Positions 207 through 12,220 of a stretch of 33,514 nt of DNA are shown piece after piece. The stretch lies in IMG/VR virus record IMGVR_UViG_3300009502_000019; one strand, written 5' to 3'. Each line of letters opens with the position of its first letter. Position 1 is the first letter of the stretch. The stretch is from a virus (taxonomy: Duplodnaviria > Heunggongvirae > Uroviricota > Caudoviricetes). The notes below the pieces were generated by a model, which saw only the letters and a program-made list of their open reading frames with translations, was not told the DNA's origin and ran no database searches. A program made the translations under genes and the position numbers.

Positions 207-283
207 TGGTCTCCCCGGACCGGATCGAACGGTCGGCCTCCAGTGTAGGAAACTAGCGCTCTGTCCAACTGAGCTACGGGGAG
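207..283 (-). tRNA. trnR: tRNA-Arg(CCT)
   Basis: Cloverleaf CTCCCCG/CGGGGAG, anticodon loop TT-CCT-AC, T-loop TTCGATC, encoded CCA. Confidence 0.95.
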
Positions 284-284
284 T

Positions 285-361
285 TGGTGCCCTTGGGCAG
301 ATTCAAACTGCCAACCTCTTCCTTCGCAGGGAAGCGCTCTATTCAATTGAGCTACAGGGGC
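285..361 (-). tRNA. trnR: tRNA-Arg(GCG)
   Basis: Acceptor GCCCCTG/CAAGGGC (one mismatch), loop CT-GCG-AA, D-loop ..GA.., T-loop TTTGAAT, CCA. Confidence 0.9.
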
Positions 362-362
362 G

Positions 363-509
363 TTATTGTTCTTTTAAAGCTTTAATCAGATCCTTCTTGC
401 CCTTTGACCTAGAGAATGCCTTACCGCTAGGCACAACCCGAGTCTTTGGGTTGATCTCCCAACCGAACCTAGGTCGTACCTCAAGTAACTTCTTGTGCTG
501 CTTATTCAT
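363..509 (-). CDS. 48-aa basic hypothetical protein
   Basis: GGAGGAAG SD upstream; MNKQHKKLLEVRPRFGWEINPKTRVVPSGKAFSRSKGKKDLIKALKEQ* fills the gap between two tRNAs. Confidence 0.6.
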   Translation of the reverse strand: MNKQHKKLLEVRPRFGWEINPKTRVVPSGKAFSRSKGKKDLIKALKEQ

Positions 510-522
510 ACTTCCTCCGAAC

Positions 523-597
523 TGGTAGCGGAACCCGGAGCTGCCCCGGAACTTCTGGCTTATGAAACCAGCGCTCTTCTAGTTAAGCTATTCCGCC
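523..597 (-). tRNA. tRNA with CAT anticodon (elongator Met or Ile2)
   Basis: GGCGGAA/TTCCGCT, loop TT-CAT-AA, T-loop GGCAGCT, A73, CCA. Confidence 0.88.
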
Positions 598-601
598 ATA
601 T

Positions 602-680
602 TGGCTGGGCCTTCTTATTACAACCGTTTCGTCTCTGGTCGGCCTTTCAGAGCGTAATTTCACCCATTGCTACTCCTGCC
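602..680 (-). other. Unclassified CCA-terminated structured RNA candidate in tRNA array
   Basis: 79 nt ending GCCCAGCCA; possible helices TGGGT/GCCCA, ATTAC/GTAAT, CTCTG/CAGAG; no cloverleaf. Confidence 0.35.
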
Positions 681-702
681 AATTCGCTTTGGGCTTCGGA
701 TT

Positions 703-776
703 TGGTCCACCTGAGAGGTAATGCTCCTCCGTCGCCCGGTTATCGGCCGGGTGCTCTGCTATTGAGCTACAGGTGG
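703..776 (-). tRNA. trnI: tRNA-Ile(GAT)
   Basis: CCACCTG/CAGGTGG, loop CC-GAT-AA, T-loop AGCATTA, CCA. Confidence 0.9.
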
Positions 777-822
777 TAATGTCTACTCATCTCAAATGTC
801 CGGTCCACAACGGACGTTTCAT

Positions 823-917
823 TGGTACACGCGGAAGGACTTGAACCTTCATATTTAGCCAGTCCGGCCAATGACCCGGGTATAAACCGGGGGGTTTACC
901 AGTTAACCTACGCGTGC
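823..917 (-). tRNA. trnI: tRNA-Ile(TAT) with 24-nt variable region
   Basis: GCACGCG/CGCGTGT, stem CCCGG/CCGGG, loop TT-TAT-AC, V-arm TTGGCC-GGACT-GGCTAA, T-loop TTCAAGT, A73-CCA; 95 nt. Confidence 0.88.
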
Positions 918-1120
918 CTGTAACCACCTTCAAATTGTCTTACCGCTTCTCTTACTGCACGAACTGTTTGCTGACACATAACACAGCCAGCTATGTGCTG
1001 TTTCATTTTGATATGCCTGCTTTTGCTAAGCGAACCGTCTACGTATTCACCTAACGGCAGTCTACTGCACTTCTCTTCTTGAATGCAATACCACTTAAAC
1101 ACCACGTCCATATCGTCCAT
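908..1120 (-). CDS. Small zinc-finger protein, anti-sigma zf-HC2-like
   Basis: GGAGG SD; L.EYVDG.L...HIAGCVMC (H-x3-C-x2-C) motif. Confidence 0.65.
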   Translation of the reverse strand: MDDMDVVFKWYCIQEEKCSRLPLGEYVDGSLSKSRHIKMKQHIAGCVMCQQTVRAVREAVRQFEGGYRHA

Positions 1121-1277
1121 ACGACCCTCCTTTGGTTTTTATAGGTTACTGCTCTCACCTATATAGAGCCGCAAAGGGGGTACTTTATTACAAACTATTT
1201 TCAACTATTTTGTCGCAAATAGTAGCTACTTTTTCCGACAAACTTGTCACACTTCCGATGTGCTTTTCGTGACAAAC

Positions 1278-1353
1278 TGGTGGGAAGTGAAGGGCACGAT
1301 CCTTCAACCTTCTGCATGTCATACAGATGCTCTTCCAATTGAGCTAACTTCCC
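1278..1353 (-). tRNA. trnV: tRNA-Val(GAC)
   Basis: GGGAAGT/ACTTCCC, loop AT-GAC-AT, T-loop ATCGTGC, CCA. Confidence 0.9.
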
Positions 1354-1354
1354 C

Positions 1355-1430
1355 TGGTGCGTGATGAAGGACTCGAACCTTCGATATCCTGGATGTAGGC
1401 CAGGTGTCCTAGCCGCTGAACGAATCACGC
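1355..1430 (-). tRNA. trnV: tRNA-Val(TAC)
   Basis: GCGTGAT/ATCACGC, loop CC-TAC-AT, T-loop TTCGAGT, CCA. Confidence 0.93.
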
Positions 1431-1433
1431 GTA

Positions 1434-1511
1434 TGGCTGGGGAGGAAGGGATCGAACCTTCCTTATTCTCGGTTAACAGCCGAGCGCCTTCGCCCTGAAG
1501 ACTACTCCCCA
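1434..1511 (-). tRNA. trnN: tRNA-Asn(GTT)
   Basis: TGGGGAG/CTCCCCA, loop CT-GTT-AA, G73-CCA. Confidence 0.93.
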
Positions 1512-1512
1512 A

Positions 1513-1572
1513 TGGTGGACACCCTCAGAGTTGCACTGAGTTCTCCTGTGCTTCTATTACACCATAGCCGCC
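1513..1572 (-). pseudogene. Anticodon-arm-less tRNA remnant (60 nt)
   Basis: D-arm-like GTGT-AATAGA-AGCAC, perfect T-arm CTCAG-TGCAACT-CTGAG and ACCA end; anticodon arm missing, acceptor poorly paired. Confidence 0.7.
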
Positions 1573-1579
1573 ATAAAAC

Positions 1580-2086
1580 TTAACTCAAATACTTTTCCCA
1601 GAGATCCACTATTTCTCCGAGCTTAATTCTTACAATTTCACGAAATCCACGAGGCCTAGCTGGGGTCCTCATTAGCTTAAGCCCCGACTCAGCTAATGTT
1701 CTGTCATCCTTTGAGTAATTGCATGCTTTGCATGCAGTTACGGTGTTATCCCAGGAGTTTTTTCCACCCTTTGATTCCGGGATTACGTGGTCAATTGTCG
1801 TGTTCTTCGCGCCGCACTTTACACTACAGTATTGGCATTGATAATTATCTCGAAGATGCACGTTACGCTTTGTGTAAGAGACATAGCTGATCCTCTCGAA
1901 CACAACACGAACATATCTTTTGAGACGTATTACCGCCGGTACTTTCATAGTTTGACTAACTGAGTGTACTTCCTTATCGTATTCCTCAAGAACAACAGCC
2001 TTATCAGAGTATACAGCAGAGATTGCAGACTGCCAGTCACACACCCCAAGGAATTGGAAATCTAGGTTGAGCACTAAGCAGCGCAT
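1580..2086 (-). CDS. HNH endonuclease (McrA/HNH_5-like)
   Basis: RDNYQCQYC...TIDHVIPESKGGKNSWDNTVTACKACN. Confidence 0.9.
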   Translation of the reverse strand: MRCLVLNLDFQFLGVCDWQSAISAVYSDKAVVLEEYDKEVHSVSQTMKVPAVIRLKRYVRVVFERISYVSYTKRNVHLRDNYQCQYCSVKCGAKNTTIDHVIPESKGGKNSWDNTVTACKACNYSKDDRTLAESGLKLMRTPARPRGFREIVRIKLGEIVDLWEKYLS

Positions 2087-2763
2087 GTTGTTTTCTCCTT
2101 AAATTTATTAGTAAATAAATCTTTCCAATAGTTTCTGTTAAAGTTCGTTCGGCAATGACACTGTTTACAAAGACTAATTAGGTTACTTAATATGTTGTGC
2201 AACTTGTCATAATCAATGTGGTGCACATTCAAACTACAACCTAAAATAACTAAATGCTCTTCCTCTGTTAGACCACATAACTGGCACTGATAATTATCTC
2301 TTTTCCTAACAGACTCTTTTAGGGTGTTGTCAAATTCCGGTCCATATGGTAGGTTAAGCCCGCCAGTCCAATTAGGATTCTCAGGACCTATCCAACGCCC
2401 GTCATAGCACCCATTTTTCTTCTTAGTATCAACACTTTTCTGTACTGCTTCTTCTGATTTTCTCTTTCCAAGCTGTGCCTCTCGTACCCTTATTTTTTGG
2501 TATTCAGATCCATTTTTACCAAACATAGGGTTACTTGAGCCAACCAACTCTTTTCGTTTCGCACGACAAGCCGTGCACCCACAATCAAGTTTGTGTGTGC
2601 TCGTTCCGCCAGTCATTGTCTTTTCATAACAGGATCTGCATCTCTCCCAGGAACTTGTAACCTGAACTTCATGTCTCATACCACATCCTCCGAGGCACTC
2701 CCTGGTTTCTCGCAGCTTCCTGTCTTTTCTAATCTTACTTCGCTTATATACTCCCGTTGGCAT
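2074..2763 (-). CDS. HNH homing endonuclease with NUMOD-type DNA-binding region
   Basis: Likely start MPTGVYKR (AAGGA SD; the ORF-track extension overlaps a tRNA); NPMFGK motif; C-terminal CQLCG...LNVHHIDYDK..N..NLISLCKQCH. Confidence 0.85.
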   Translation of the reverse strand: MPTGVYKRSKIRKDRKLRETRECLGGCGMRHEVQVTSSWERCRSCYEKTMTGGTSTHKLDCGCTACRAKRKELVGSSNPMFGKNGSEYQKIRVREAQLGKRKSEEAVQKSVDTKKKNGCYDGRWIGPENPNWTGGLNLPYGPEFDNTLKESVRKRDNYQCQLCGLTEEEHLVILGCSLNVHHIDYDKLHNILSNLISLCKQCHCRTNFNRNYWKDLFTNKFKEKTTCAA

Positions 2764-2781
2764 AACAATCCTTTCGATCGT

Positions 2782-2856
2782 TGGTCGGAGTAGGGAATCT
2801 TGCAATCCCAACCTCTCGGTCCCGAACCGAGCGCTCTTCTTTTGAGCTACACTCCG
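2782..2856 (-). tRNA. trnP: tRNA-Pro(CGG)
   Basis: CGGAGTG/TACTCCG, loop TT-CGG-GA, T-loop TGCAAGA, CCA. Confidence 0.92.
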
Positions 2857-4208
2857 TTAAAAATATCCTGCTTTTCAGCGAGATACTTTAGATACACTTC
2901 TTTGTCTTCTCCGAGCTTTAGTTCCCCATTCGTCAGTGCCGCCATCACGAGATCCTTAAGCCTTCCAACCTCCTTACCTCCTGGAAGACTGAATCGCTCC
3001 ATGATAGACAGCCCGTCTAGTGGGCACTTAAGTTCTTTGTAGTTCTTTACTTCCTCGATCCTGTTCTTAAGGTGATCGATACGGGCTAGGTTCATTTGAA
3101 CCTTCTCTGGTCTATGGCTAGTAATATCAGCGGCACTCAGAGCGATCAGCTTGTCAAGATGGGCCCCGGTCTCGACAACGTACCTTCTTACCGCTGAATC
3201 TGACCAGTCTTCCTTGTACAGGTTCGTTCTCATGTGGTTCCGGACCAAGTACGTTACGTCCTCGATCACCTTCCGCGGCAGCCCGAGCCGACTCAAGATT
3301 GAATAAGCCATCAGAGCCGAAACCTCTTCGTGCCGGTAGAAGTGCACCCGTCCATCCCACTCAGTCTTAACGTAAGGCTTGCCGACGTCATGGAACAACG
3401 CTGCAAACCTTGAAGCTACTTCAGCCGGCGAGTTCTCAACTACTCCTACCGTATGAAGCCATACATTTTTGCTGTGGTACTTGCTGTCTTGGTCCACAGC
3501 ATTAAGTACCGTCAGCTCCGGGATGAAGTAATTGAGCAGCTTGTACTTCAGCAAGTCATTCAGAGCCTCACCAACGTACTTACCAAGCAGTATCTTGGTG
3601 AACTCGTCTAGGATTCGCTCCTTCGGCAGGAACAGAAGCCTGTGTGCTTCACTTGCTAAAGCCTCTCTTACTCCATCTGAATACAAAAACCCAAACCGCG
3701 ACTTGAACCGGATCGCCCTAAGCATCCTGAGCGGATCGTCGCTAAAGATCTCTGCCGCTTTCATAGGGGTCTCAAGGATCCCCTTTGCCAGGTGCTCCTT
3801 GCCTCCGAAGAGGTCTACTACCTCCCCATTTCGATCCATTGCCAGGGCATTGATCGTAAAGTCCCGGCGGATCAGGTCGTCCGCGATCGTTGTTCCCCAC
3901 TCCACAACCGGCCGGCGGTTATCCCTCTGGTACTTCTCGTTTTTTCTAAATGTAGTTGCTTGTATGATGTACCCATCCATAACAACTTCTATTGTTCCAA
4001 AGGCTTTTCCTACATCGTGTACTTTGTAACCTGCTTTTTGAAAGACCTTTTCAGTATCGTCTGGAAGAAGGTTAATAGCAAAATCCAGATCATCCGTGTC
4101 TTTTCCAAGCAGCTTGTCACGGACTGTGCCACCAACCAAGTATATGTCAGCGTCTTTGAATAGTGAAAATACCTTTTCTACTACCCTATCAGTGATAGTT
4201 TCAGGCAT
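2847..4208 (-). CDS. cca: CCA tRNA nucleotidyltransferase with HD domain
   Basis: YLVGGTVRD..DLDF, RRDFTINALA, DDPLRMLRAIRF, HT...FHDVGKP motifs of class II CCA/poly(A) polymerase family. Confidence 0.93.
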   Translation of the reverse strand: MPETITDRVVEKVFSLFKDADIYLVGGTVRDKLLGKDTDDLDFAINLLPDDTEKVFQKAGYKVHDVGKAFGTIEVVMDGYIIQATTFRKNEKYQRDNRRPVVEWGTTIADDLIRRDFTINALAMDRNGEVVDLFGGKEHLAKGILETPMKAAEIFSDDPLRMLRAIRFKSRFGFLYSDGVREALASEAHRLLFLPKERILDEFTKILLGKYVGEALNDLLKYKLLNYFIPELTVLNAVDQDSKYHSKNVWLHTVGVVENSPAEVASRFAALFHDVGKPYVKTEWDGRVHFYRHEEVSALMAYSILSRLGLPRKVIEDVTYLVRNHMRTNLYKEDWSDSAVRRYVVETGAHLDKLIALSAADITSHRPEKVQMNLARIDHLKNRIEEVKNYKELKCPLDGLSIMERFSLPGGKEVGRLKDLVMAALTNGELKLGEDKEVYLKYLAEKQDIFNGV

Positions 4209-4906
4209 CTTTTTACCGCTGCTTTCTGTAGTACTTGGTTAACTTCTGGACTTCTGCCTAATGTCCATCCGGTGCTTAAATAGTGCAATACTTGTTCTTT
4301 GCGTACGAGCCGGCTCTCTTTTGTTTTTAAATTATGTATGTGTTTCCGCCCAATATGTGCAAGCCTGTTCTTCTCTGTTTGATCTTGTGGCTTTGTTCGG
4401 CCACGTTGCACTTTGCTATTTTTGTTTCTTATTTCAACCGCCCTGTCCACCCCATACTTCTCTGAATAAGTTTTACCTTTGTACTCCCCACGCTTGTACA
4501 TGCAGAAACAACAGATGCAAGTGTCTTCATTGTGCCCGAGTGCTGATAGTGTTTTCCCGACCCGTGCTTCGGACACCCATGGTTTAGGGCCACTCTTTCT
4601 CAGCTTGGTTTCCTCTGAGTCAGGTCCCCATGCTCCGTTTCCGCCGACTGTAATATTGTAACCGGTAGCTCTATCTGTAGAATTAAATTCAGCAATATAC
4701 TTTCTTTCCAAGCGGTCTGCGTCCTCTTGGTTCTGTGCTGTTGCTAGTGTTTCTCGTGTAAAGCCACCTTTTCCATGTTCTTTTATTGCAATTTTTAACA
4801 GTTTTCCGCTTCCAAGATATCCAGGTCTTGCATAGCCAAATTTCTGACCAATGTACACTTTACCGTTAAATTTATTGGTTGTTTTATATATAATCCACTC
4901 ACTCAT
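4181..4906 (-). CDS. GIY-YIG homing endonuclease
   Basis: Likely start MSEWIIYKTTNKFNGKVYIGQ (AAGG SD); YLGSG, GYNIT motifs; NUMOD3-like SEETKLRKS. Confidence 0.88.
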   Translation of the reverse strand: MSEWIIYKTTNKFNGKVYIGQKFGYARPGYLGSGKLLKIAIKEHGKGGFTRETLATAQNQEDADRLERKYIAEFNSTDRATGYNITVGGNGAWGPDSEETKLRKSGPKPWVSEARVGKTLSALGHNEDTCICCFCMYKRGEYKGKTYSEKYGVDRAVEIRNKNSKVQRGRTKPQDQTEKNRLAHIGRKHIHNLKTKESRLVRKEQVLHYLSTGWTLGRSPEVNQVLQKAAVKRCLKLSLIG

Positions 4907-4920
4907 ATCATGCCTTTCAT

Positions 4921-4994
4921 TGGCTGACCTGCAGGGATTCGCACCCCAATTTTTCGGTTCAGAGCCGAACGTCCTACTGTTGGACGACAGGTCA
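4921..4994 (-). tRNA. trnQ: tRNA-Gln(CTG)
   Basis: TGACCTG/CAGGTCA, loop CT-CTG-AA, T-loop TGCGAAT, G73-CCA. Confidence 0.92.
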
Positions 4995-4998
4995 ATGT

Positions 4999-5073
4999 TG
5001 GTCGGGGTGGTGAATTTTGAAATCACGACCTCTCGCTCCCAAAGCGAGCGCTCTGCCTCTGAGCTACACCCCG
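4999..5073 (-). tRNA. trnP: tRNA-Pro(TGG)
   Basis: CGGGGTG/CACCCCG, loop TT-TGG-GA, CCA. Confidence 0.94.
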
Positions 5074-5084
5074 AAATTAACTAC

Positions 5085-5097
5085 ATTTTAAAGAACA
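5085..5097 (-). promoter_or_regulatory. boxA-like antitermination element
   Basis: TGTTCTTTAAAAT in spacer between tRNA-Gln(TTG) and tRNA-Pro(TGG). Confidence 0.55.
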
Positions 5098-5103
5098 ACA
5101 CAT

Positions 5104-5177
5104 TGGCTGGCGATGGAGGTACCGCCCCTCCGCCTCAAGGTTCAAAGCCTCGCACGCTGCTATTACGCCAATCGCCA
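5104..5177 (-). tRNA. trnQ: tRNA-Gln(TTG)
   Basis: TGGCGAT/ATCGCCA, loop CT-TTG-AA, T-loop GGCGGTA, CCA. Confidence 0.9.
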
Positions 5178-5178
5178 T

Positions 5179-5254
5179 TGGTGGGCTCGGCGGGCAATGA
5201 TCCCGCAACCTTCTCCTTAAGAGGGAGTTGCTCTGCCAATTGAGCTACGAACCC
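5179..5254 (-). tRNA. trnK: tRNA-Lys(CTT)
   Basis: GGGTTCG/CGAGCCC, loop CT-CTT-AA, T-loop ATCATTG, CCA. Confidence 0.92.
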
Positions 5255-5259
5255 AATAC

Positions 5260-5336
5260 TGGTGCGTCCGGCAGGAATCGAACCTACTCTTGGTCCTGGT
5301 TAAAAGCCAGGCGTCTACCCAGTCGACTTCGGACGC
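5260..5336 (-). tRNA. trnK: tRNA-Lys(TTT)
   Basis: GCGTCCG/CGGACGC, loop CT-TTT-AA, T-loop TTCGATT, CCA. Confidence 0.92.
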
Positions 5337-5341
5337 TTATG

Positions 5342-5773
5342 TTACGCAATTCTCATTACTCTAGTTGGTCTTCCTCTGCCTTTGTTTCTTGACCCATAAA
5401 ACTCTGTTAATGTGTGGCAGTTAGGGCAAAGTAGTTCTAGATTTTCTTCACGGTTGTTTTTCCAGTTACCGTCCTTATGCTCAATCTGCAAAGGAACTTT
5501 TCCTGTATAGATGTTAACCTCTGACCATTCGCATTTCGAGCACTTGCTTTTGTACTTCTCAAACAAATATTTTCTTACATGCCCAGAGATGGAGGAGACT
5601 CCTTTTCCACCATTCTCTAGCCCCTGCTTCCATCGACGTATGTACAAATCATATGCAGTCTTATTTTTAACTCTGACCACATGTCTGTTTCCACACATAC
5701 GAGAACAAAATAGCCGATGACATTTCCTAGAAGAAAACTCTTTTTTACATTCGTTACATACATATGTATGCAT
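5342..5773 (-). CDS. HNH endonuclease
   Basis: Likely start MHTYVCNEC (GAGG SD; the ORF-track extension overlaps tRNA-Cys); LQIEHKDGNWKNNREENLELLCPNCH. Confidence 0.87.
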   Translation of the reverse strand: MHTYVCNECKKEFSSRKCHRLFCSRMCGNRHVVRVKNKTAYDLYIRRWKQGLENGGKGVSSISGHVRKYLFEKYKSKCSKCEWSEVNIYTGKVPLQIEHKDGNWKNNREENLELLCPNCHTLTEFYGSRNKGRGRPTRVMRIA

Positions 5774-5787
5774 TATATTACCCTCAG

Positions 5788-5874
5788 TGGAGACGGCTGT
5801 CGGACTTGCACCGACGTGTGGATTGCTCCAACAGGTTTTGCAGACCTGCACATTCGCTGCTCTGTCAAGCCGTC
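5788..5874 (-). tRNA. trnC: tRNA-Cys(GCA) with long variable arm
   Basis: GACGGCT/AGCCGTC, loop CT-GCA-AA, U73, V-arm TGGA-GCAA-TCCA, T-loop TGCAAGT; 87 nt. Confidence 0.88.
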
Positions 5875-5875
5875 A

Positions 5876-5964
5876 TGGAAGCGGAGATGGGAGTTGCACC
5901 CATCAGCTGCTTTTGGCAGCTCCGGCTTATGAGACCGGTTAGCCCACTGGGGCTCGTCTCCGCA
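5876..5964 (-). tRNA. Non-canonical CAT-anticodon tRNA with long V-arm and 5-bp D-stem
   Basis: (T)GCGGAG/CTCCGC(T), D-arm AGCCC-CAGT-GGGCT, loop CT-CAT-AA, V-arm AGCTGC-CAAAA-GCAGCT, T-arm ATGGG-TGCAACT-CCCAT, U73-CCA. Confidence 0.8.
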
Positions 5965-5974
5965 ATGAATAATA

Positions 5975-5988
5975 CTTTTCAAAAAACA
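5975..5988 (-). promoter_or_regulatory. Degenerate boxA-like element
   Basis: TGTTTTTTGAAAAG, one core mismatch to TGTTCTTTGAAAA. Confidence 0.35.
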
Positions 5989-5991
5989 AAC

Positions 5992-6065
5992 TGGCGGGCC
6001 AGCAAGGTGACGCTCCCTGGTCTTCGGTTTTGGAGACCGACGTTCTACTGTTGAACTACTGACCC
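5992..6065 (-). tRNA. trnW: tRNA-Trp(CCA)
   Basis: GGGTCAG/CTGGCCC, loop CT-CCA-AA, T-loop AGCGTCA, G73-CCA. Confidence 0.9.
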
Positions 6066-6073
6066 ATAACTTT

Positions 6074-6164
6074 TGGCGGTGGGTAGACGAGTCGAACGCC
6101 TAAAGGGCTATTAACCCTTAACCGGGTTCAAGCCGGTCGGACCTGCCAATGTACCAAACCCACC
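6074..6164 (-). tRNA. trnS: tRNA-Ser(TGA)
   Basis: GGTGGGT/ACCCACC, loop CT-TGA-AC, long V-arm, G73-CCA. Confidence 0.9.
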
Positions 6165-6174
6165 ATTTTATTAC

Positions 6175-6247
6175 ATCGGCAAACATCGCCAACTTTCGAT
6201 CTTTGCCGATCTGCTACTGCACAATAACATATCTAATGTTATCGTGC
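6175..6247 (-). other. Tandem stable hairpins in tRNA spacer (possible small RNA or processing signal)
   Basis: 12-bp GCACGATAACAT/ATGTTATTGTGC hairpin, 8-nt linker, 9-bp ATCGGCAAA/TTTGCCGAT hairpin. Confidence 0.4.
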
Positions 6248-6252
6248 GTTAC

Positions 6253-6339
6253 TGGCGGAAGAGGTAGGTGCTGCCCCTACAAGCCTTTTACAGCTCCCGT
6301 TTTCGAGACGGGTGAGCTCTCTAACTGCTCAGCTCTTCC
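6253..6339 (-). tRNA. trnS: tRNA-Ser(CGA)
   Basis: GGAAGAG/CTCTTCC, loop CT-CGA-AA, V-arm, T-loop GGCAGCA, G73-CCA. Confidence 0.9.
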
Positions 6340-6340
6340 T

Positions 6341-6427
6341 TGGCGGAGGAGGTGGGGTACGATCCCACATGCCTTTTACAGCACCCGCGTTCCAGGCGGG
6401 CGAGCCACCAAATTGCTCAACTCCTCC
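6341..6427 (-). tRNA. trnS: tRNA-Ser(GGA)
   Basis: GGAGGAG/CTCCTCC, loop CT-GGA-AC, V-arm, T-loop ATCGTAC, CCA. Confidence 0.92.
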
Positions 6428-6429
6428 AT

Positions 6430-6520
6430 CGGCGGAAGACGTCGGTGCTGCCCCGACCAGACGTTTGCACGTCTCCAACTTAGCAGGTTGGCCCAGCTAA
6501 CTGATATCTGGCTGTCTTCC
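6430..6520 (-). tRNA. trnS: tRNA-Ser(GCT), genomic 3' end CCG
   Basis: GGAAGAC/GTCTTCC, loop CT-GCT-AA, V-arm AGACGT-GCAA-ACGTCT, T-loop GGCAGCA. Confidence 0.9.
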
Positions 6521-6528
6521 ATAAAAAT

Positions 6529-6813
6529 ATTTGAGAACTATAACCCGGGTTCTGTAGTTACCTTTCAGTAACTGCTAATCATCTGTCTAAGCTCCAAACC
6601 CGCTACTATTGACTGAGTAAGTCAGTAGCCTATTTTGGATTGCATCATGCAAGGATTGCCAACGTTTCACTCCCACTAAAGGGTTTCGTCACTGTGGCTC
6701 TATACTCTCAGTCTTTCAACTGGTCAAAGTTATTAGCTTTGATGCACTACTCTTGATGCCCGGAGTTTCCTCGAATATCCATTGCAGATACCCGCGATTA
6801 GCCGTTCTCAAAT
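6529..6813 (-). ncRNA. rnpB: RNase P RNA (compact bacterial-type)
   Basis: P1 ATTTGAGAAC/GTTCTCAAAT; P4 strands GAGGAAACTCCGGGC (6772-6758) and ACAGAACCCGGGTTA (6555-6541) with a compensatory C-G; GCCACAG, GTGAAAC, GGCAATCC, CAAAATAGG and AGACAGATGAT conserved blocks in the right order. Confidence 0.9.
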
Positions 6814-7490
6814 TTTACTTTAATGCATCCACAATTAAACATCCTACCTCGTATCCATCCTTCTTTCGTATAACCTTGAAGTGCGTCTTCTGTAACAAGT
6901 TTAGATTGGTGTAGTTTTACATTTGAAATCCACTTCTTACCCTTCCAGCTGTTCCGATTTTTTCCGTTAGTACAACCCCCCGATCCTGGAAAAAACTTTC
7001 TACCTCTTATCCAACCATTATTGATATAGTCTGAAAACTCTTCTTTATTAGCCCATCTAGATTGTTTTAATTGTAAGTTAGATATCCACTTGTGCTCTGC
7101 CGTTCGTCCAACTTTTCCAAACATTCCATTCTTTTTACCCGCATGATTTCCATGACTAGCACTTTCTTTCATCTTCTTTCTAGTTTCTTCTGAAGCTTTC
7201 CAACCAGGACAACCGTCTCCGCCATCAGCTAGGTTATATACGTTATCTTTTCCAATGTAATTTCTGCACTCAGCGACATACTTTATTTCTAGCATGTCTA
7301 ATGTAATTTTATCATTAGCATACTCTATTGCTTTTACACGAAAATTATGTTTACCGTACTTTTTGATGGCTTGCTTTAAGTAAGATCCACTACCAAAATA
7401 TTTAGGATTAAACTTACCTTTCTTTTGACCAACATACAGTTTACCATTGACCAAGTTAGTAGTCAGATAAACATATCCGTACATGTTCAT
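6798..7490 (-). CDS. GIY-YIG homing endonuclease
   Basis: Likely start MNMYGYVYLTTNLVNGKLYVGQ (GGAG SD); YFGSG, YNL..GG, SEETRKKM; two C-terminal KWISN...GWIRGR repeats. Confidence 0.88.
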   Translation of the reverse strand: MNMYGYVYLTTNLVNGKLYVGQKKGKFNPKYFGSGSYLKQAIKKYGKHNFRVKAIEYANDKITLDMLEIKYVAECRNYIGKDNVYNLADGGDGCPGWKASEETRKKMKESASHGNHAGKKNGMFGKVGRTAEHKWISNLQLKQSRWANKEEFSDYINNGWIRGRKFFPGSGGCTNGKNRNSWKGKKWISNVKLHQSKLVTEDALQGYTKEGWIRGRMFNCGCIKVKFENG

Positions 7491-7500
7491 AGCACACTCC

Positions 7501-7527
7501 AAAAAAAGAAGGGCACCTTTCGGGTGC
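7501..7527 (-). terminator. Intrinsic terminator-like hairpin in leader of GIY-YIG gene
   Basis: GCACC-CGAAA-GGTGC followed by CCTTCTTTTTTT. Confidence 0.5.
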
Positions 7528-7612
7528 TTGTAGGATATCCGGTTATGGCTATCCAACCCTACGGGTGCCCTAAAAATAGGCATAAAAATACCGAAGTCCT
7601 ACAAGCAACTGC

Positions 7613-7641
7613 ATTATACCGCGTTTTGGAGCAAAAGTCAA
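7613..7641 (-). promoter_or_regulatory. sigma70-type promoter P2
   Basis: TTGACT-17 bp-TATAAT. Confidence 0.85.
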
Positions 7642-7660
7642 GAACTATTTCAAATTAAAT

Positions 7661-7734
7661 TGGCGGTCCATGGGAGAATTAAACTCCCGCTTTAAGCGTG
7701 ACAAGCTTACGTGCTATCACTACACCAATGAACC
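7661..7734 (-). tRNA. trnD: tRNA-Asp(GTC)
   Basis: GGTTCAT/ATGGACC, loop TT-GTC-AC, T-loop TTTAATT, G73-CCA. Confidence 0.9.
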
Positions 7735-7748
7735 ATTTTCAAAGAACA
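7735..7748 (-). promoter_or_regulatory. boxA antitermination element
   Basis: TGTTCTTTGAAAAT, matching the rrn-type boxA seen in many bacterial rRNA leaders/spacers. Confidence 0.65.
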
Positions 7749-7821
7749 GGTAGCGCATAACGGTACTGCCCCGATGTCTCCTGGCTGAGAACCAGACGTC
7801 CTTCTTTTAGACGAATGCGCC
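7748..7821 (-). tRNA. trnE: tRNA-Glu(CTC), genomic 3' end CCT
   Basis: GGCGCAT/ATGCGCT, loop TT-CTC-AG, T-loop GGCAGTA. Confidence 0.88.
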
Positions 7822-7828
7822 ATACAAC

Positions 7829-7943
7829 GTGAGCGAGAGGTATTCTATAACTGGCGTGCTGCTGTTACACTAAACGGCCGAGGCCGCTGCGGAGTTGAAC
7901 CGCTCCTCCAGTTCCATGAGTGTTAGGAACCTCTTATGCCCAC
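7829..7943 (-). ncRNA. YrlA-like Y RNA (circularly permuted tRNA mimic)
   Basis: Order T-arm (GCGG-TTCAACT-CCGC), loop-closed acceptor-like stem (AGCGGC-CTCG-GCCGTT), D-arm (GTGT-AACAGCA-GCAC); closed by AACTGG/CCAGTT and terminal helices GTGGGC/GCTCAC, AGAGGT/ACCTCT with a bulged-C segment GGTTCCTA/TAGAATACC. Confidence 0.78.
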
Positions 7944-8017
7944 TGGTAGGGGTAGACGGTACTGACCCGTCGTTTCCTGGGTGAAAACCAGGTGACCTGC
8001 CTTTAGTCGATACCCCC
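7944..8017 (-). tRNA. trnE: tRNA-Glu(TTC)
   Basis: GGGGGTA/TACCCCT, loop TT-TTC-AC, T-loop GTCAGTA, CCA. Confidence 0.9.
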
Positions 8018-11425: not shown

Positions 11426-11964
11426 TACGCGCCTCGCTTCCTTTCTGAGAAAACTACACCTTCCAGTTCAAGCACCGACACGTTCAATCCCTCGCAGATA
11501 TCGCGTACGTGCTGAACACACTTGAAGAACTCATCGTTGTCCTTCTTAACGTTTAGATACAAGTCTTCCTTGTCGAGCATGAGCATCTTTATACCACAAT
11601 CATAGATGATTTCACCAAGCCTTTTGATGCCCATTTTGGTCTCGATCTTGGGAACGAACTGCACGGTGGGCGGGAGCTTCGCCTGGATCTCCTTCACAAT
11701 GCTGACCTTCTCGATGTTCGATACCGCGAAGTACTTTACGTTCTTCCACTTCGCACATAGGTCGTAGGCTGTTTCCATAGCAATAACAGGGGTCGGGGGC
11801 TTTGTCCTGCCCTGGGGGTAGTCAAGAAAGACATCCTTGTCCTCGTTAGTCTTTAGAATCTGCTCCAGTTCCTCGACAGTATTAACCCAAGCCATGTTGA
11901 TACGAATGACAGAGTCGTTTGGAAGTGCCATGTATTTCTGTAGGTTATTTGATACGATTATCAT
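11425..11964 (-). CDS. Minimal pyruvate-kinase-barrel / HpcH-like protein
   Basis: IRINMAW, FLDYPQGRTK, FVPKIET, LMLDKEDL align by eye to PK barrel motifs (RLNFSH, LDTKGP, KIE, MVARGDL); no B/C domains. Confidence 0.55.
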   Translation of the reverse strand: MIIVSNNLQKYMALPNDSVIRINMAWVNTVEELEQILKTNEDKDVFLDYPQGRTKPPTPVIAMETAYDLCAKWKNVKYFAVSNIEKVSIVKEIQAKLPPTVQFVPKIETKMGIKRLGEIIYDCGIKMLMLDKEDLYLNVKKDNDEFFKCVQHVRDICEGLNVSVLELEGVVFSERKRGA

Positions 11965-12220
11965 TTTTCTTTACCCTTATGTAGAGAGTTATGTAAAAGA
12001 CAGTTGTTAAAATTGCGATCACGTACTTTATTACGAGAGGGTTTTGCCGGATGAGGATGGCATACCAAAGGGCGATTACGTTGCCGACCAGGTACATAAC
12101 GTACAGGAGTAGACTCACGCCATCGACGCACTTGGTTTTCACCGTCTTTATGATCTGAGGCACAATCACCACAGAGAATATTACAGTTGCCGTCCATCCA
12201 AGAATATCAGGTAGGCTCAT
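11945..12220 (-). CDS. PQ-loop (SemiSWEET-like) membrane protein
   Basis: Three hydrophobic helices, PQIIKTVKTKCVDGVS. Confidence 0.8.
   Translation of the reverse strand: MSLPDILGWTATVIFSVVIVPQIIKTVKTKCVDGVSLLLYVMYLVGNVIALWYAILIRQNPLVIKYVIAILTTVFYITLYIRVKKNDNRIK

Follow-up and report, generated by a model that had tools for sequence, protein, structure and literature searches.

Phage tRNA genes with a probable, mutually compensated alternative elbow

A large tRNA island of an uncultured tailed phage from a lake (Caudoviricetes; IMG/VR record IMGVR_UViG_3300009502_000019) contains, side by side with canonical tRNA genes, a set of genes in which the bases joining D-loop and T-loop at the elbow are replaced in matched pairs. 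The DNA analysed here, called the window, is 33,514 nucleotides long and represents the minus strand of G000:C1:8187-41700, where G000 denotes the 46.8-kb IMG/VR record with an estimated completeness of about 40% (CheckV). The dense tRNA island occupies positions 207-8017 with every tRNA gene on the minus strand, and within it positions 18 and 19 covary with positions 55 and 56. We assign a probability of roughly 0.7 to the reading that these are working phage tRNAs with a mutually compensated alternative elbow. If so, a strictly covarying natural alternative would show a second way to build the elbow, borrowing a T-loop design used elsewhere in RNA.

G18, U55 (as Ψ55) and the G19-C56 and T54-A58 pairs are taught as invariants of cytoplasmic tRNAs, and tRNA finders, modification maps and structural models all incorporate them. 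In the canonical elbow, G18 intercalates between nucleotides 57 and 58 and forms a single hydrogen bond with Ψ55, and the G19-C56 pair makes up the flat outer face (PMC4810234). Island genes were parsed from their 3′ end with a 7-nt acceptor strand, a 5-nt T-stem strand and a 7-nt T-loop, and the D arm was placed by best pairing. A preliminary description of this DNA had tabulated the elbow bases of 25 genes in the window, and both of its tables were reproduced exactly: GG at 18/19 with xTC at 54-56 in 11 genes, AG with xGC in 12 and GA with TTT in two (Arg-GCG and Asp), and a 54/58 combination of T/A in 14, A/T in five and G/G in six. Misnumbering had been named as what might undo the pattern. 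In an Infernal alignment to the Rfam model RF00005, which is independent of our parse, the G18 column is occupied by A and the U55 column by G for the same genes, and tRNA-Asp shows A19/U56. As two independent numberings agree, the covariation is no numbering artefact. The rule can also be worded free of any numbering: an island gene contains GG in its D-loop if and only if positions 55-56 read TC.

Beyond the window start, seven further tRNA genes (G000:C1 42001-43475) all follow the elbow rule. Arg-TCG has GA/TTT, Arg-TCT and four Leu tRNAs with long variable arms have GG/TTC, and the class-I Leu-TAA has AG/TGC. Window and flank together give an island total of 31 credible tRNA genes, a remnant at 1513-1607 not counted, with GG-TC in 16, AG-GC in 12, GA-TT in three and no exception. 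A perfect 16/15 split of 31 genes has a probability of 1/C(31,15) = 3e-9 (by hand) if the genes are taken as independent; they are not, owing to shared ancestry, and hence paralogue pairs and samples from outside the island were used as further tests. The earlier statement that the covariation is free of exceptions thus holds for the 31 genes of the island and fails beyond it, where about 1-2% of 1175 phage tRNAs deviate. Its gene count stands for 24 of the 25 members; the one at 1513-1607 is a tRNA 3′ remnant.

A canonical elbow (GG with TTC and A58) is present in 7 of the 25 window genes and in 12 of the 31 island genes. Position 18/55 or 19/56 is altered in 14 of the 25 and position 54/58 in 11. 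The combination of A18 and G55 with a retained G19-C56 pair occurs in 12 window genes and, outside the window, in Leu-TAA; the T-loops of all 12 read TGCRA, AGCRT or GGCRG. Since the switches at 18/55, 19/56 and 54/58 are found in varying combinations, they are separable modules. As had been pointed out before, about half of the window genes (12 of 25) have no U55 and 11 have no U54, and by the chemistry of these modifications they cannot carry Ψ55 or m5U54, respectively (PMC7912444); genes with A18 are likewise unable to carry Gm18. The alternative elbow thus predicts tRNAs that work without Ψ55, m5U54 or Gm18. The tRNA genes of the window, with elbow bases given as 18-19/54-56 where spelled out, are as follows.

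207-283, minus strand: tRNA-Arg(CCT); canonical GG/TTC, 54/58 T/A, CCA encoded
285-361, minus strand: tRNA-Arg(GCG); G18 A19 with T55 T56 (A19-U56 for G19-C56), 54/58 T/A
523-597, minus strand: tRNA-Met(CAT); A18 G19 with G55 C56, 54/58 G/G; cloverleaf fold; missed by ARAGORN at default settings
703-776, minus strand: tRNA-Ile(GAT); A18/G55, 54/58 A/T
823-917, minus strand: tRNA with anticodon TAT and a 24-nt variable arm; canonical GG/TTC
1278-1353, minus strand: tRNA-Val(GAC); GG/ATC, 54/58 A/T
1355-1430, minus strand: tRNA-Val(TAC); canonical elbow
1434-1511, minus strand: tRNA-Asn(GTT); canonical elbow
1513-1607, minus strand: tRNA 3′ remnant; T arm (loop TGCAACT), a weak stem resembling an acceptor stem, and ACCA
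2782-2856, minus strand: tRNA-Pro(CGG); A18/G55, 54/58 T/A; paralogue of Pro-TGG
4921-4994, minus strand: tRNA-Gln(CTG); A18/G55, 54/58 T/A
4999-5073, minus strand: tRNA-Pro(TGG); canonical GG/TTC
5104-5177, minus strand: tRNA-Gln(TTG); A18/G55, 54/58 G/G
5179-5254, minus strand: tRNA-Lys(CTT); GG/ATC, 54/58 A/T
5260-5336, minus strand: tRNA-Lys(TTT); canonical elbow
5788-5874, minus strand: tRNA-Cys(GCA) with a 16-nt variable arm; A18/G55, 54/58 T/A
5876-5964, minus strand: tRNA with anticodon CAT and a Sec/allo-like D arm; T-loop TGCAACT (G55), long variable arm, T1/T72 mismatch
5992-6065, minus strand: tRNA-Trp(CCA); A18/G55, 54/58 A/T
6074-6164, minus strand: tRNA-Ser(TGA); canonical elbow
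6253-6339, minus strand: tRNA-Ser(CGA); A18/G55, 54/58 G/G; paralogue of Ser-GGA
6341-6427, minus strand: tRNA-Ser(GGA); GG/ATC, 54/58 A/T
6430-6520, minus strand: tRNA-Ser(GCT); A18/G55, 54/58 G/G; 3′ tail GCCG, no encoded CCA
7661-7734, minus strand: tRNA-Asp(GTC); G18 A19 with T55 T56, 54/58 T/A
7748-7821, minus strand: tRNA-Glu(CTC); A18/G55, 54/58 G/G; 3′ tail ACCT, a single mismatch in the T stem and, at 34.5 bits, the lowest Rfam score
7944-8017, minus strand: tRNA-Glu(TTC); GG/GTC, 54/58 G/G; paralogue of Glu-CTC

Paralogues within the island indicate how often the switch took place. Five same-family pairs differ in elbow state, and in each of them both partner positions are changed. 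Scored on 50 core positions, with D-loop, T-loop, anticodon and variable region left out, the two members are 86% identical for Pro-CGG/Pro-TGG, 82% for Ser-CGA/Ser-GGA, 68% for Glu-CTC/Glu-TTC and 66% each for Ile-GAT/TAT tRNA and Leu-TAA/Leu-CAA. The T-loops of Glu-CTC and Glu-TTC differ solely at position 55, their D-loops at 18 and 20. As such pairs differ by a double change, the switch occurred repeatedly, and shared ancestry does not explain the covariation. The Pro, Ser and Glu genes are natural matched pairs well suited to a double-mutant test of elbow energetics.

The same rule governs phage tRNAs outside the island. IMG/VR was searched with a bait confined to the D arm (TA-GCTC-AANxGNA-GAGC, x being A or G), and distinct well-formed tRNAs were counted. 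The A18 bait retrieved 71 tRNAs with G55 and one with U55, the G18 bait 100 with U55, one with C55 and none with G55. A wider sample was composed of every cloverleaf in the 234 fetched IMG/VR loci (2.0 Mb, L002-L235) after removal of the baits, giving 1175 distinct phage tRNAs. In it, D-loop and 55-56 combine as GG-TC in 925, AG-GC in 166 and GA-TT in 20 cases, and as GG-GC in four, AG-TC in three, GG-TT in two and GA-TC in one. The comparison with other phage arrays that had been proposed hence yields the same three classes with about 10 off-diagonal tRNAs among 1175, and the three-class elbow rule is general in phage tRNAs at about 98-99%. A minor class with C55 (T-C-C at 54-56) and a GG D-loop accounts for 19 of the 1175 tRNAs. 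The 54/58 combinations are T/A 914, A/T 21, A/A 15 and G/G 6 among tRNAs with U55, and T/A 111, G/G 37, A/T 20 and C/A 9 among those with G55. In the G18-bait loci, which are roughly unbiased in this respect, G55 is present in 7 of 559 tRNAs (1.3%). In the A18-bait loci its share per array extends from 1/32 up to 24/24, and in the present island it is about 40%.

The design also occurs in cellular genomes. Among prokaryotic contigs, counted with one genome per species, 64 of 72 A18 baits were accompanied by G55, and many of the A18-bait records belong to Verrucomicrobiota, cyanobacteria and candidate-phyla genomes. The best matches of the rewired tRNA-Ile(GAT) at 703-776 were A18/G55 tRNAs from Verrucomicrobiota genome bins (80-86% identity, loci L236-L354), a weak hint that may point to the host lineage or to a shared gene pool. 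A blastn search of the same tRNA against cultured phages matched only positions 3-51 of mycobacteriophage tRNA-Asn genes, a stretch that is uninformative about the T-loop.

The rewired genes retain the features expected of tRNAs. In 24 of the 25 window genes, 6-7 of 7 acceptor pairs, 4-5 of 5 anticodon-stem pairs and 4-5 of 5 T-stem pairs are formed, the exception being 1513-1607, and nearly every gene has all seven acceptor pairs. For 8 of the 11 rewired window genes folded, the cloverleaf is the unconstrained minimum-energy fold. In the wide phage sample, R57 is present in 99.6% of both G55 and U55 tRNAs, G53-C61 in 95% (G55) versus 97% (U55) and A14 in 88% versus 90%, and the G55 tRNAs cover 43 anticodons. 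The 31 island tRNAs have 30 distinct anticodons, CAT being the sole one present twice. Thus, rewired and canonical genes complement rather than duplicate each other and form one decoding set for 14 amino acids. Taken together, the paralogue pairs, the IMG/VR samples, the kept invariants and the folds bear out the preliminary suggestion that compensation reflects selection for a folded tRNA and not decay. Judged from their sequences, the rewired genes are most likely functional tRNAs.

Gene finders recover this class poorly. With default settings ARAGORN reported 15 genes in the island, namely 10 of 11 window genes with GG/xTC, both with GA/TTT and only 3 of 12 with A18/G55. With RF00005, 18 window genes reached the gathering threshold of 29 bits with a full-length match, including seven A18/G55 genes at 34.5-56 bits, and bit scores were lower for rewired genes (34-56) than for the others (mostly 53-63). 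Class-II genes were detected only at the Rfam E-value threshold, by ARAGORN or by our own parse, and the 3′-anchored cloverleaf scan added Ser-CGA, Ser-GCT and the CAT tRNA at 5876-5964. This shortfall on A18/G55 genes suggests that censuses of phage tRNAs probably under-count the class.

In structural terms, the exchange of G18/U55 for A18/G55 would convert the T-loop type usual in tRNA, UUCRA with G as the intercalator, into the general design of riboswitches, RNase P and rRNA, UGNRA with adenosine as the intercalator. In FMN and cobalamin riboswitches, 89% of the T-loops are UGNRA and the intercalator is almost exclusively an adenosine facing position 2; the same study cites an rRNA T-loop, GGAAG, and sets the tRNA-type UUCRA apart (10.1101/2022.12.26.521914). 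The island's T54-G55-N-R57-A58 with A18 fits UGNRA plus adenosine, and its GGCAG resembles the GGAAG of rRNA. All 12 A18/G55 genes of the window have the sequence features of general T-loops, namely G at loop position 2, a purine at position 4 and positions 1 and 5 able to pair non-canonically. By analogy, we infer that TGCRA with A18 and GGCRG with A18 represent the general T-loop solution inside a tRNA, in which A18 would intercalate and contact G55 as it does in other T-loops. Unlike these, the island motif sits in the tRNA elbow, where UUCRA plus G is regarded as obligatory, and its third position, C56, still forms a Watson-Crick pair with G19. A19-U56 would simply replace one Watson-Crick outer pair by another, and the loop-closing U54/A58 would be replaced by A54/U58 or G54/G58. 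As the outer 19:56 pair, R57, G53-C61, the stems and CCA are retained, the L-shape offered to the ribosome, EF-Tu, RNase P and the CCA-adding enzyme should persist. The rewired tRNAs are presumably expressed, charged and used.

Several observations weigh against this interpretation. A54/U58 is no obvious isostere of the reverse-Hoogsteen pair U54/A58. The minimum-energy folds of Cys and Gln-TTG are not cloverleaves, and Glu-CTC is marginal, as it scores 34.5 bits, has a mismatch in its T stem and does not encode CCA. The sequence at 1513-1607 does not fold as a cloverleaf; its T arm is good, and it has ACCA and a stem resembling an acceptor stem, but a credible D or anticodon arm is missing. 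The gene counts in all samples are inflated by shared ancestry. Finally, the sequencing runs that match the locus are DNA only, with no RNA run among those listed; in these data the phage is present at 100% identity in lake metagenomes from 2016, 2017 and 2020.

With canonical tRNAs the island genes share the cloverleaf, 7/5 acceptor and T stems, a 7-nt T-loop, R57, G53-C61, a Watson-Crick 19:56 pair and CCA. Other tRNA classes that depart from the invariants, such as tRNA-Sec, allo-tRNA, tRNA-Pyl and mitochondrial tRNAs (PMC7609411, PMC5389517), alter stem lengths or lose the contact between D-loop and T-loop, whereas the island keeps the 7/5 cloverleaf and the loop-loop lock and writes it in other letters. 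The non-canonical tRNA review and the allo-tRNA paper do not mention an A18/G55 design (PMC7609411, PMC5389517). Reviews of the elbow and of T-loop modification describe the elbow nucleotides as conserved or universal, again with no mention of this class (PMC4810234, PMC7912444). A full-text search found no publication on the A18/G55 elbow, older in vivo work on the selection of T-loop variants lying outside the search, and found no published name for what appears to be a class of rewired elbows. The present window contributes the three compensated pairs side by side, paralogues cleanly distinguished by the switch, the test of the rule with a one-loop bait and a negative result on a link to RNase P.

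Phage tRNA clusters of the T4 type carry Seg homing endonucleases. One of these, SegB, appears in PMC13096335. Such clusters resemble the island in their tandem tRNAs a few bases apart with GIY-YIG or HNH endonuclease genes between them, but the island is far larger (31 genes), includes an RNase P RNA and a CCA-adding enzyme, and has non-canonical elbows in about half of its tRNAs. Large, mobile, accessory tRNA sets are also known as bacterial L-arrays, for instance the Anabaena trn operon (PMC8421152), and as mycobacterial array units (PMC5966550). The island, in contrast, resides on a phage, and the L-array paper is silent on T-loop, G18, U55 and elbow (PMC8421152).

Island genes are often spaced by 1-9 bases, and CCA is encoded in nearly all tRNA genes, those for Ser-GCT and Glu-CTC lacking it. 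We considered that rewired tRNAs might encode CCA more often and so bypass the host CCA enzyme; the wide phage sample did not support this overall (73% of G55 versus 69% of U55 tRNAs, p = 0.35), and mixed arrays taken alone gave weak support (83% versus 70%, p = 0.013). Interspersed with the tRNA genes are three HNH and two SegE-like GIY-YIG endonuclease open reading frames (ORFs; families PF14279/PF01844 for HNH and PF19835 for the SegE-like GIY-YIG type), a CCA-adding enzyme and a reduced class-A RNase P RNA, including the following.

1580-2086, minus strand: HNH homing endonuclease (PF14279, 1.8e-15)
2074-2811, minus strand: HNH-like ORF, weak match; missing from a related peat contig (joint 2086-2781)
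2847-4208, minus strand: CCA-adding enzyme (PF01743, 4.5e-32, nucleotidyltransferase head; PF12627 and PF01966, RNA-binding and HD domains)
5342-5851, minus strand: HNH-type endonuclease ORF, weak match
6525-6813, minus strand: reduced class-A RNase P RNA of 289 nt (134.2 bits; RF00010 gathering score 100)
6798-7583, minus strand: GIY-YIG (SegE-like) homing endonuclease (PF19835)

Collinearity with the array, including the RNase P RNA and the CCA-adding enzyme, is seen in a related peat-metagenome contig of 7.7 kb, which lacks the HNH-like ORF at 2086-2781, as fits a mobile homing endonuclease. No close relative of the CCA-adding enzyme was found in IMG/VR. The RNase P RNA matches RF00010 over model positions 1-367. 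It retains P1-P5, P7-P11, a short P12, P15, CR-I, CR-V, J11/12 and J12/13, and it is devoid of P13/P14 (43 positions reduced to 2) and P18 (24 to 0). Its 3′ end lies 4 nt before tRNA-Ser(GCT), so that it is probably released from a shared transcript by its own activity. It had no blastn match among cultured phages, and a literature search found no publication on a phage-encoded RNase P RNA.

As to why the design spread, a quite possible answer, which we hold somewhat short of even odds, is that structurally equivalent variants drift without any benefit into accessory (phage or mobile) tRNA sets freed from the need for the host's TruB, TrmA and TrmH. TruB and TrmA are dispensable in E. coli, the variants match the common general T-loop design, arrays range continuously from a single rewired tRNA to an entirely rewired set, and rewired tRNAs are found in phages and cellular genomes alike. 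However, intermediates are almost absent (about 7 of 1175). Each switch would thus have to pass through a harmful single mutant, a point against easy drift, and the strong lineage enrichment of G55 would call for an explanation. Somewhat unlikely in our estimate, and compatible with the alternative elbow, is diversifying selection on the T-loop to escape host nucleases or enzymes that read U54-U55-C56, as the preliminary description had proposed. All three letters of UUC are varied, each with its own compensation, and TTC is kept in just 12 of the 31 island tRNAs. G55 is enriched in certain lineages (1.3%, 7/559, in the roughly unbiased loci versus 1/32-24/24 in particular arrays), non-T/A pairs at 54/58 are concentrated among G55 tRNAs, and the array includes a repair-capable CCA-adding enzyme. 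The type III CRISPR-associated Schlafen nuclease CbCash cuts the T-loop 5′ of U55 at UUC; single substitutions of U54 or U55 abolish cleavage, and the fate of phage tRNAs was left open by the authors (PMC13462974). As this published nuclease needs both U54 and U55, evasion of T-loop-reading host factors is plausible, and the rewired tRNAs are a concrete candidate for resistance to defence nucleases that cut the T-loop. Nevertheless, no T-loop nuclease has been linked to the phage's host, and 12 island tRNAs, including all four long-arm Leu tRNAs and Lys(TTT), are fully canonical and would remain vulnerable. Moreover, bacterial chromosomes, in which evading self-defence is less obvious, carry the same A18/G55 design, and compensated drift alone could yield the same pattern. 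We are more doubtful still about the wider proposal of 'stealth' tRNAs of large phages, in which the T-Ψ-C signature would be rewritten at 54/55/56 and matched at 58/18/19 against Schlafen/Cash-type nucleases and modification enzymes. If it were true, translation would continue after host tRNAs are destroyed or marked, and the rewired elbow would be a general, sequence-readable signature of counter-defence against T-loop-directed immunity. Of the nuclease, modification and T-box ideas, evasion of T-box sensing is the least likely. The outer 19:56 pair, on which T-boxes stack (PMC4810234), is kept by all island tRNAs as G-C or A-U, and hence the changes are not obviously suited to it.

It is improbable, by contrast with the functional tRNAs that we favour, that the genes are pseudogenes in decay or encode tRNA-like RNAs acting outside translation, for instance as decoys or regulators. 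This would accommodate the remnant at 1513-1607, the two genes without CCA and the odd members of the set (the Sec/allo-like CAT tRNA, the long-arm Cys and the long-arm TAT tRNA), and irregular peat tRNA polycistrons were not used in E. coli translation (PMC5389517). It is at variance with the intact stems (7/7 acceptor nearly throughout, 5/5 anticodon stem), the compensated rather than random changes, the non-redundant anticodons and the conservation of the design across hundreds of contigs. Even less probable appears to be that the rewired elbow marks tRNAs for a co-evolved phage RNase P RNA and CCA-adding enzyme. Both the reduced RNase P RNA, lacking P13/P14 and P18, and the CCA-adding enzyme do lie inside the array, and a second rewired array, L086 (8 of 12 tRNAs with G55), also has a reduced RNase P RNA (281 nt at 11916-12196, 122 bits). 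On the other hand, CR-I/CR-V pairs resembling those of RNase P were detected, by a motif scan only, in two other arrays, L130 and L202, in which 0/27 and 0/25 tRNAs have G55, and most rewired arrays sampled show no RNase P. The elbow-stacking module formed by J11/12 and J12/13, which acts on the 19:56 pair (PMC4810234), is kept, and the nature of that pair has not changed; each presumed transcript contains canonical tRNAs mixed with rewired ones. Judged from the motif pairs in L130 and L202, we reject an exclusive tie of phage RNase P to rewired elbows, and with no G55 tRNA in either array, the ribozyme goes with large phage tRNA arrays generally and not with rewiring.

The remnant at 1513-1607 has its 5′ part inside the HNH gene, and the homology with the peat contig is interrupted at 1572. 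A split or intron-containing tRNA was considered at this site and rejected, as the search for a 5′ acceptor partner gave matches at chance level only. The CAT tRNA at 5876-5964 is reminiscent of tRNA-Sec and allo-tRNA in its D arm, with a 5-bp stem and the 4-nt loop CAGT, and in its long variable arm of 6 bp; it also has U73 and the T1/T72 mismatch. Its acceptor/T branch can be read as 7/5, with this mismatch, or as 8/4; tRNA-Sec and allo-tRNA have a branch of 12 bp divided 8/4 or 9/3. It gave the strongest fold of the folded set (z −4.5) and scored 34.6 bits against the Rfam tRNA-Sec model, under the gathering score of 47. Two other genes have variable arms not expected from their anticodons, namely the TAT tRNA (Ile by the code) at 823-917 with 24 nt and tRNA-Cys(GCA) at 5788-5874 with 16 nt and a GCAA loop closing the arm. 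UAU is the commonest anticodon among allo-tRNAs (PMC5389517). In both tRNA-Pro genes (2782-2856 and 4999-5073), T53/T61 replaces the conserved G53-C61, which in effect shortens the T stem to 4 bp and widens its loop to 9 nt.

The spacer between the two Glu genes (7822-7943, minus strand) folds with z −2.4 into an outer stem around three hairpins, and Rfam recorded no YrlA match there. One hairpin is T-arm-like with the loop UUCAACU, and another is D-arm-like with the loop AACAGCA, which is of the A18 type. If these loops dock as in a tRNA, the element would combine A18 with U55 and thereby break the rule of the tRNA genes.

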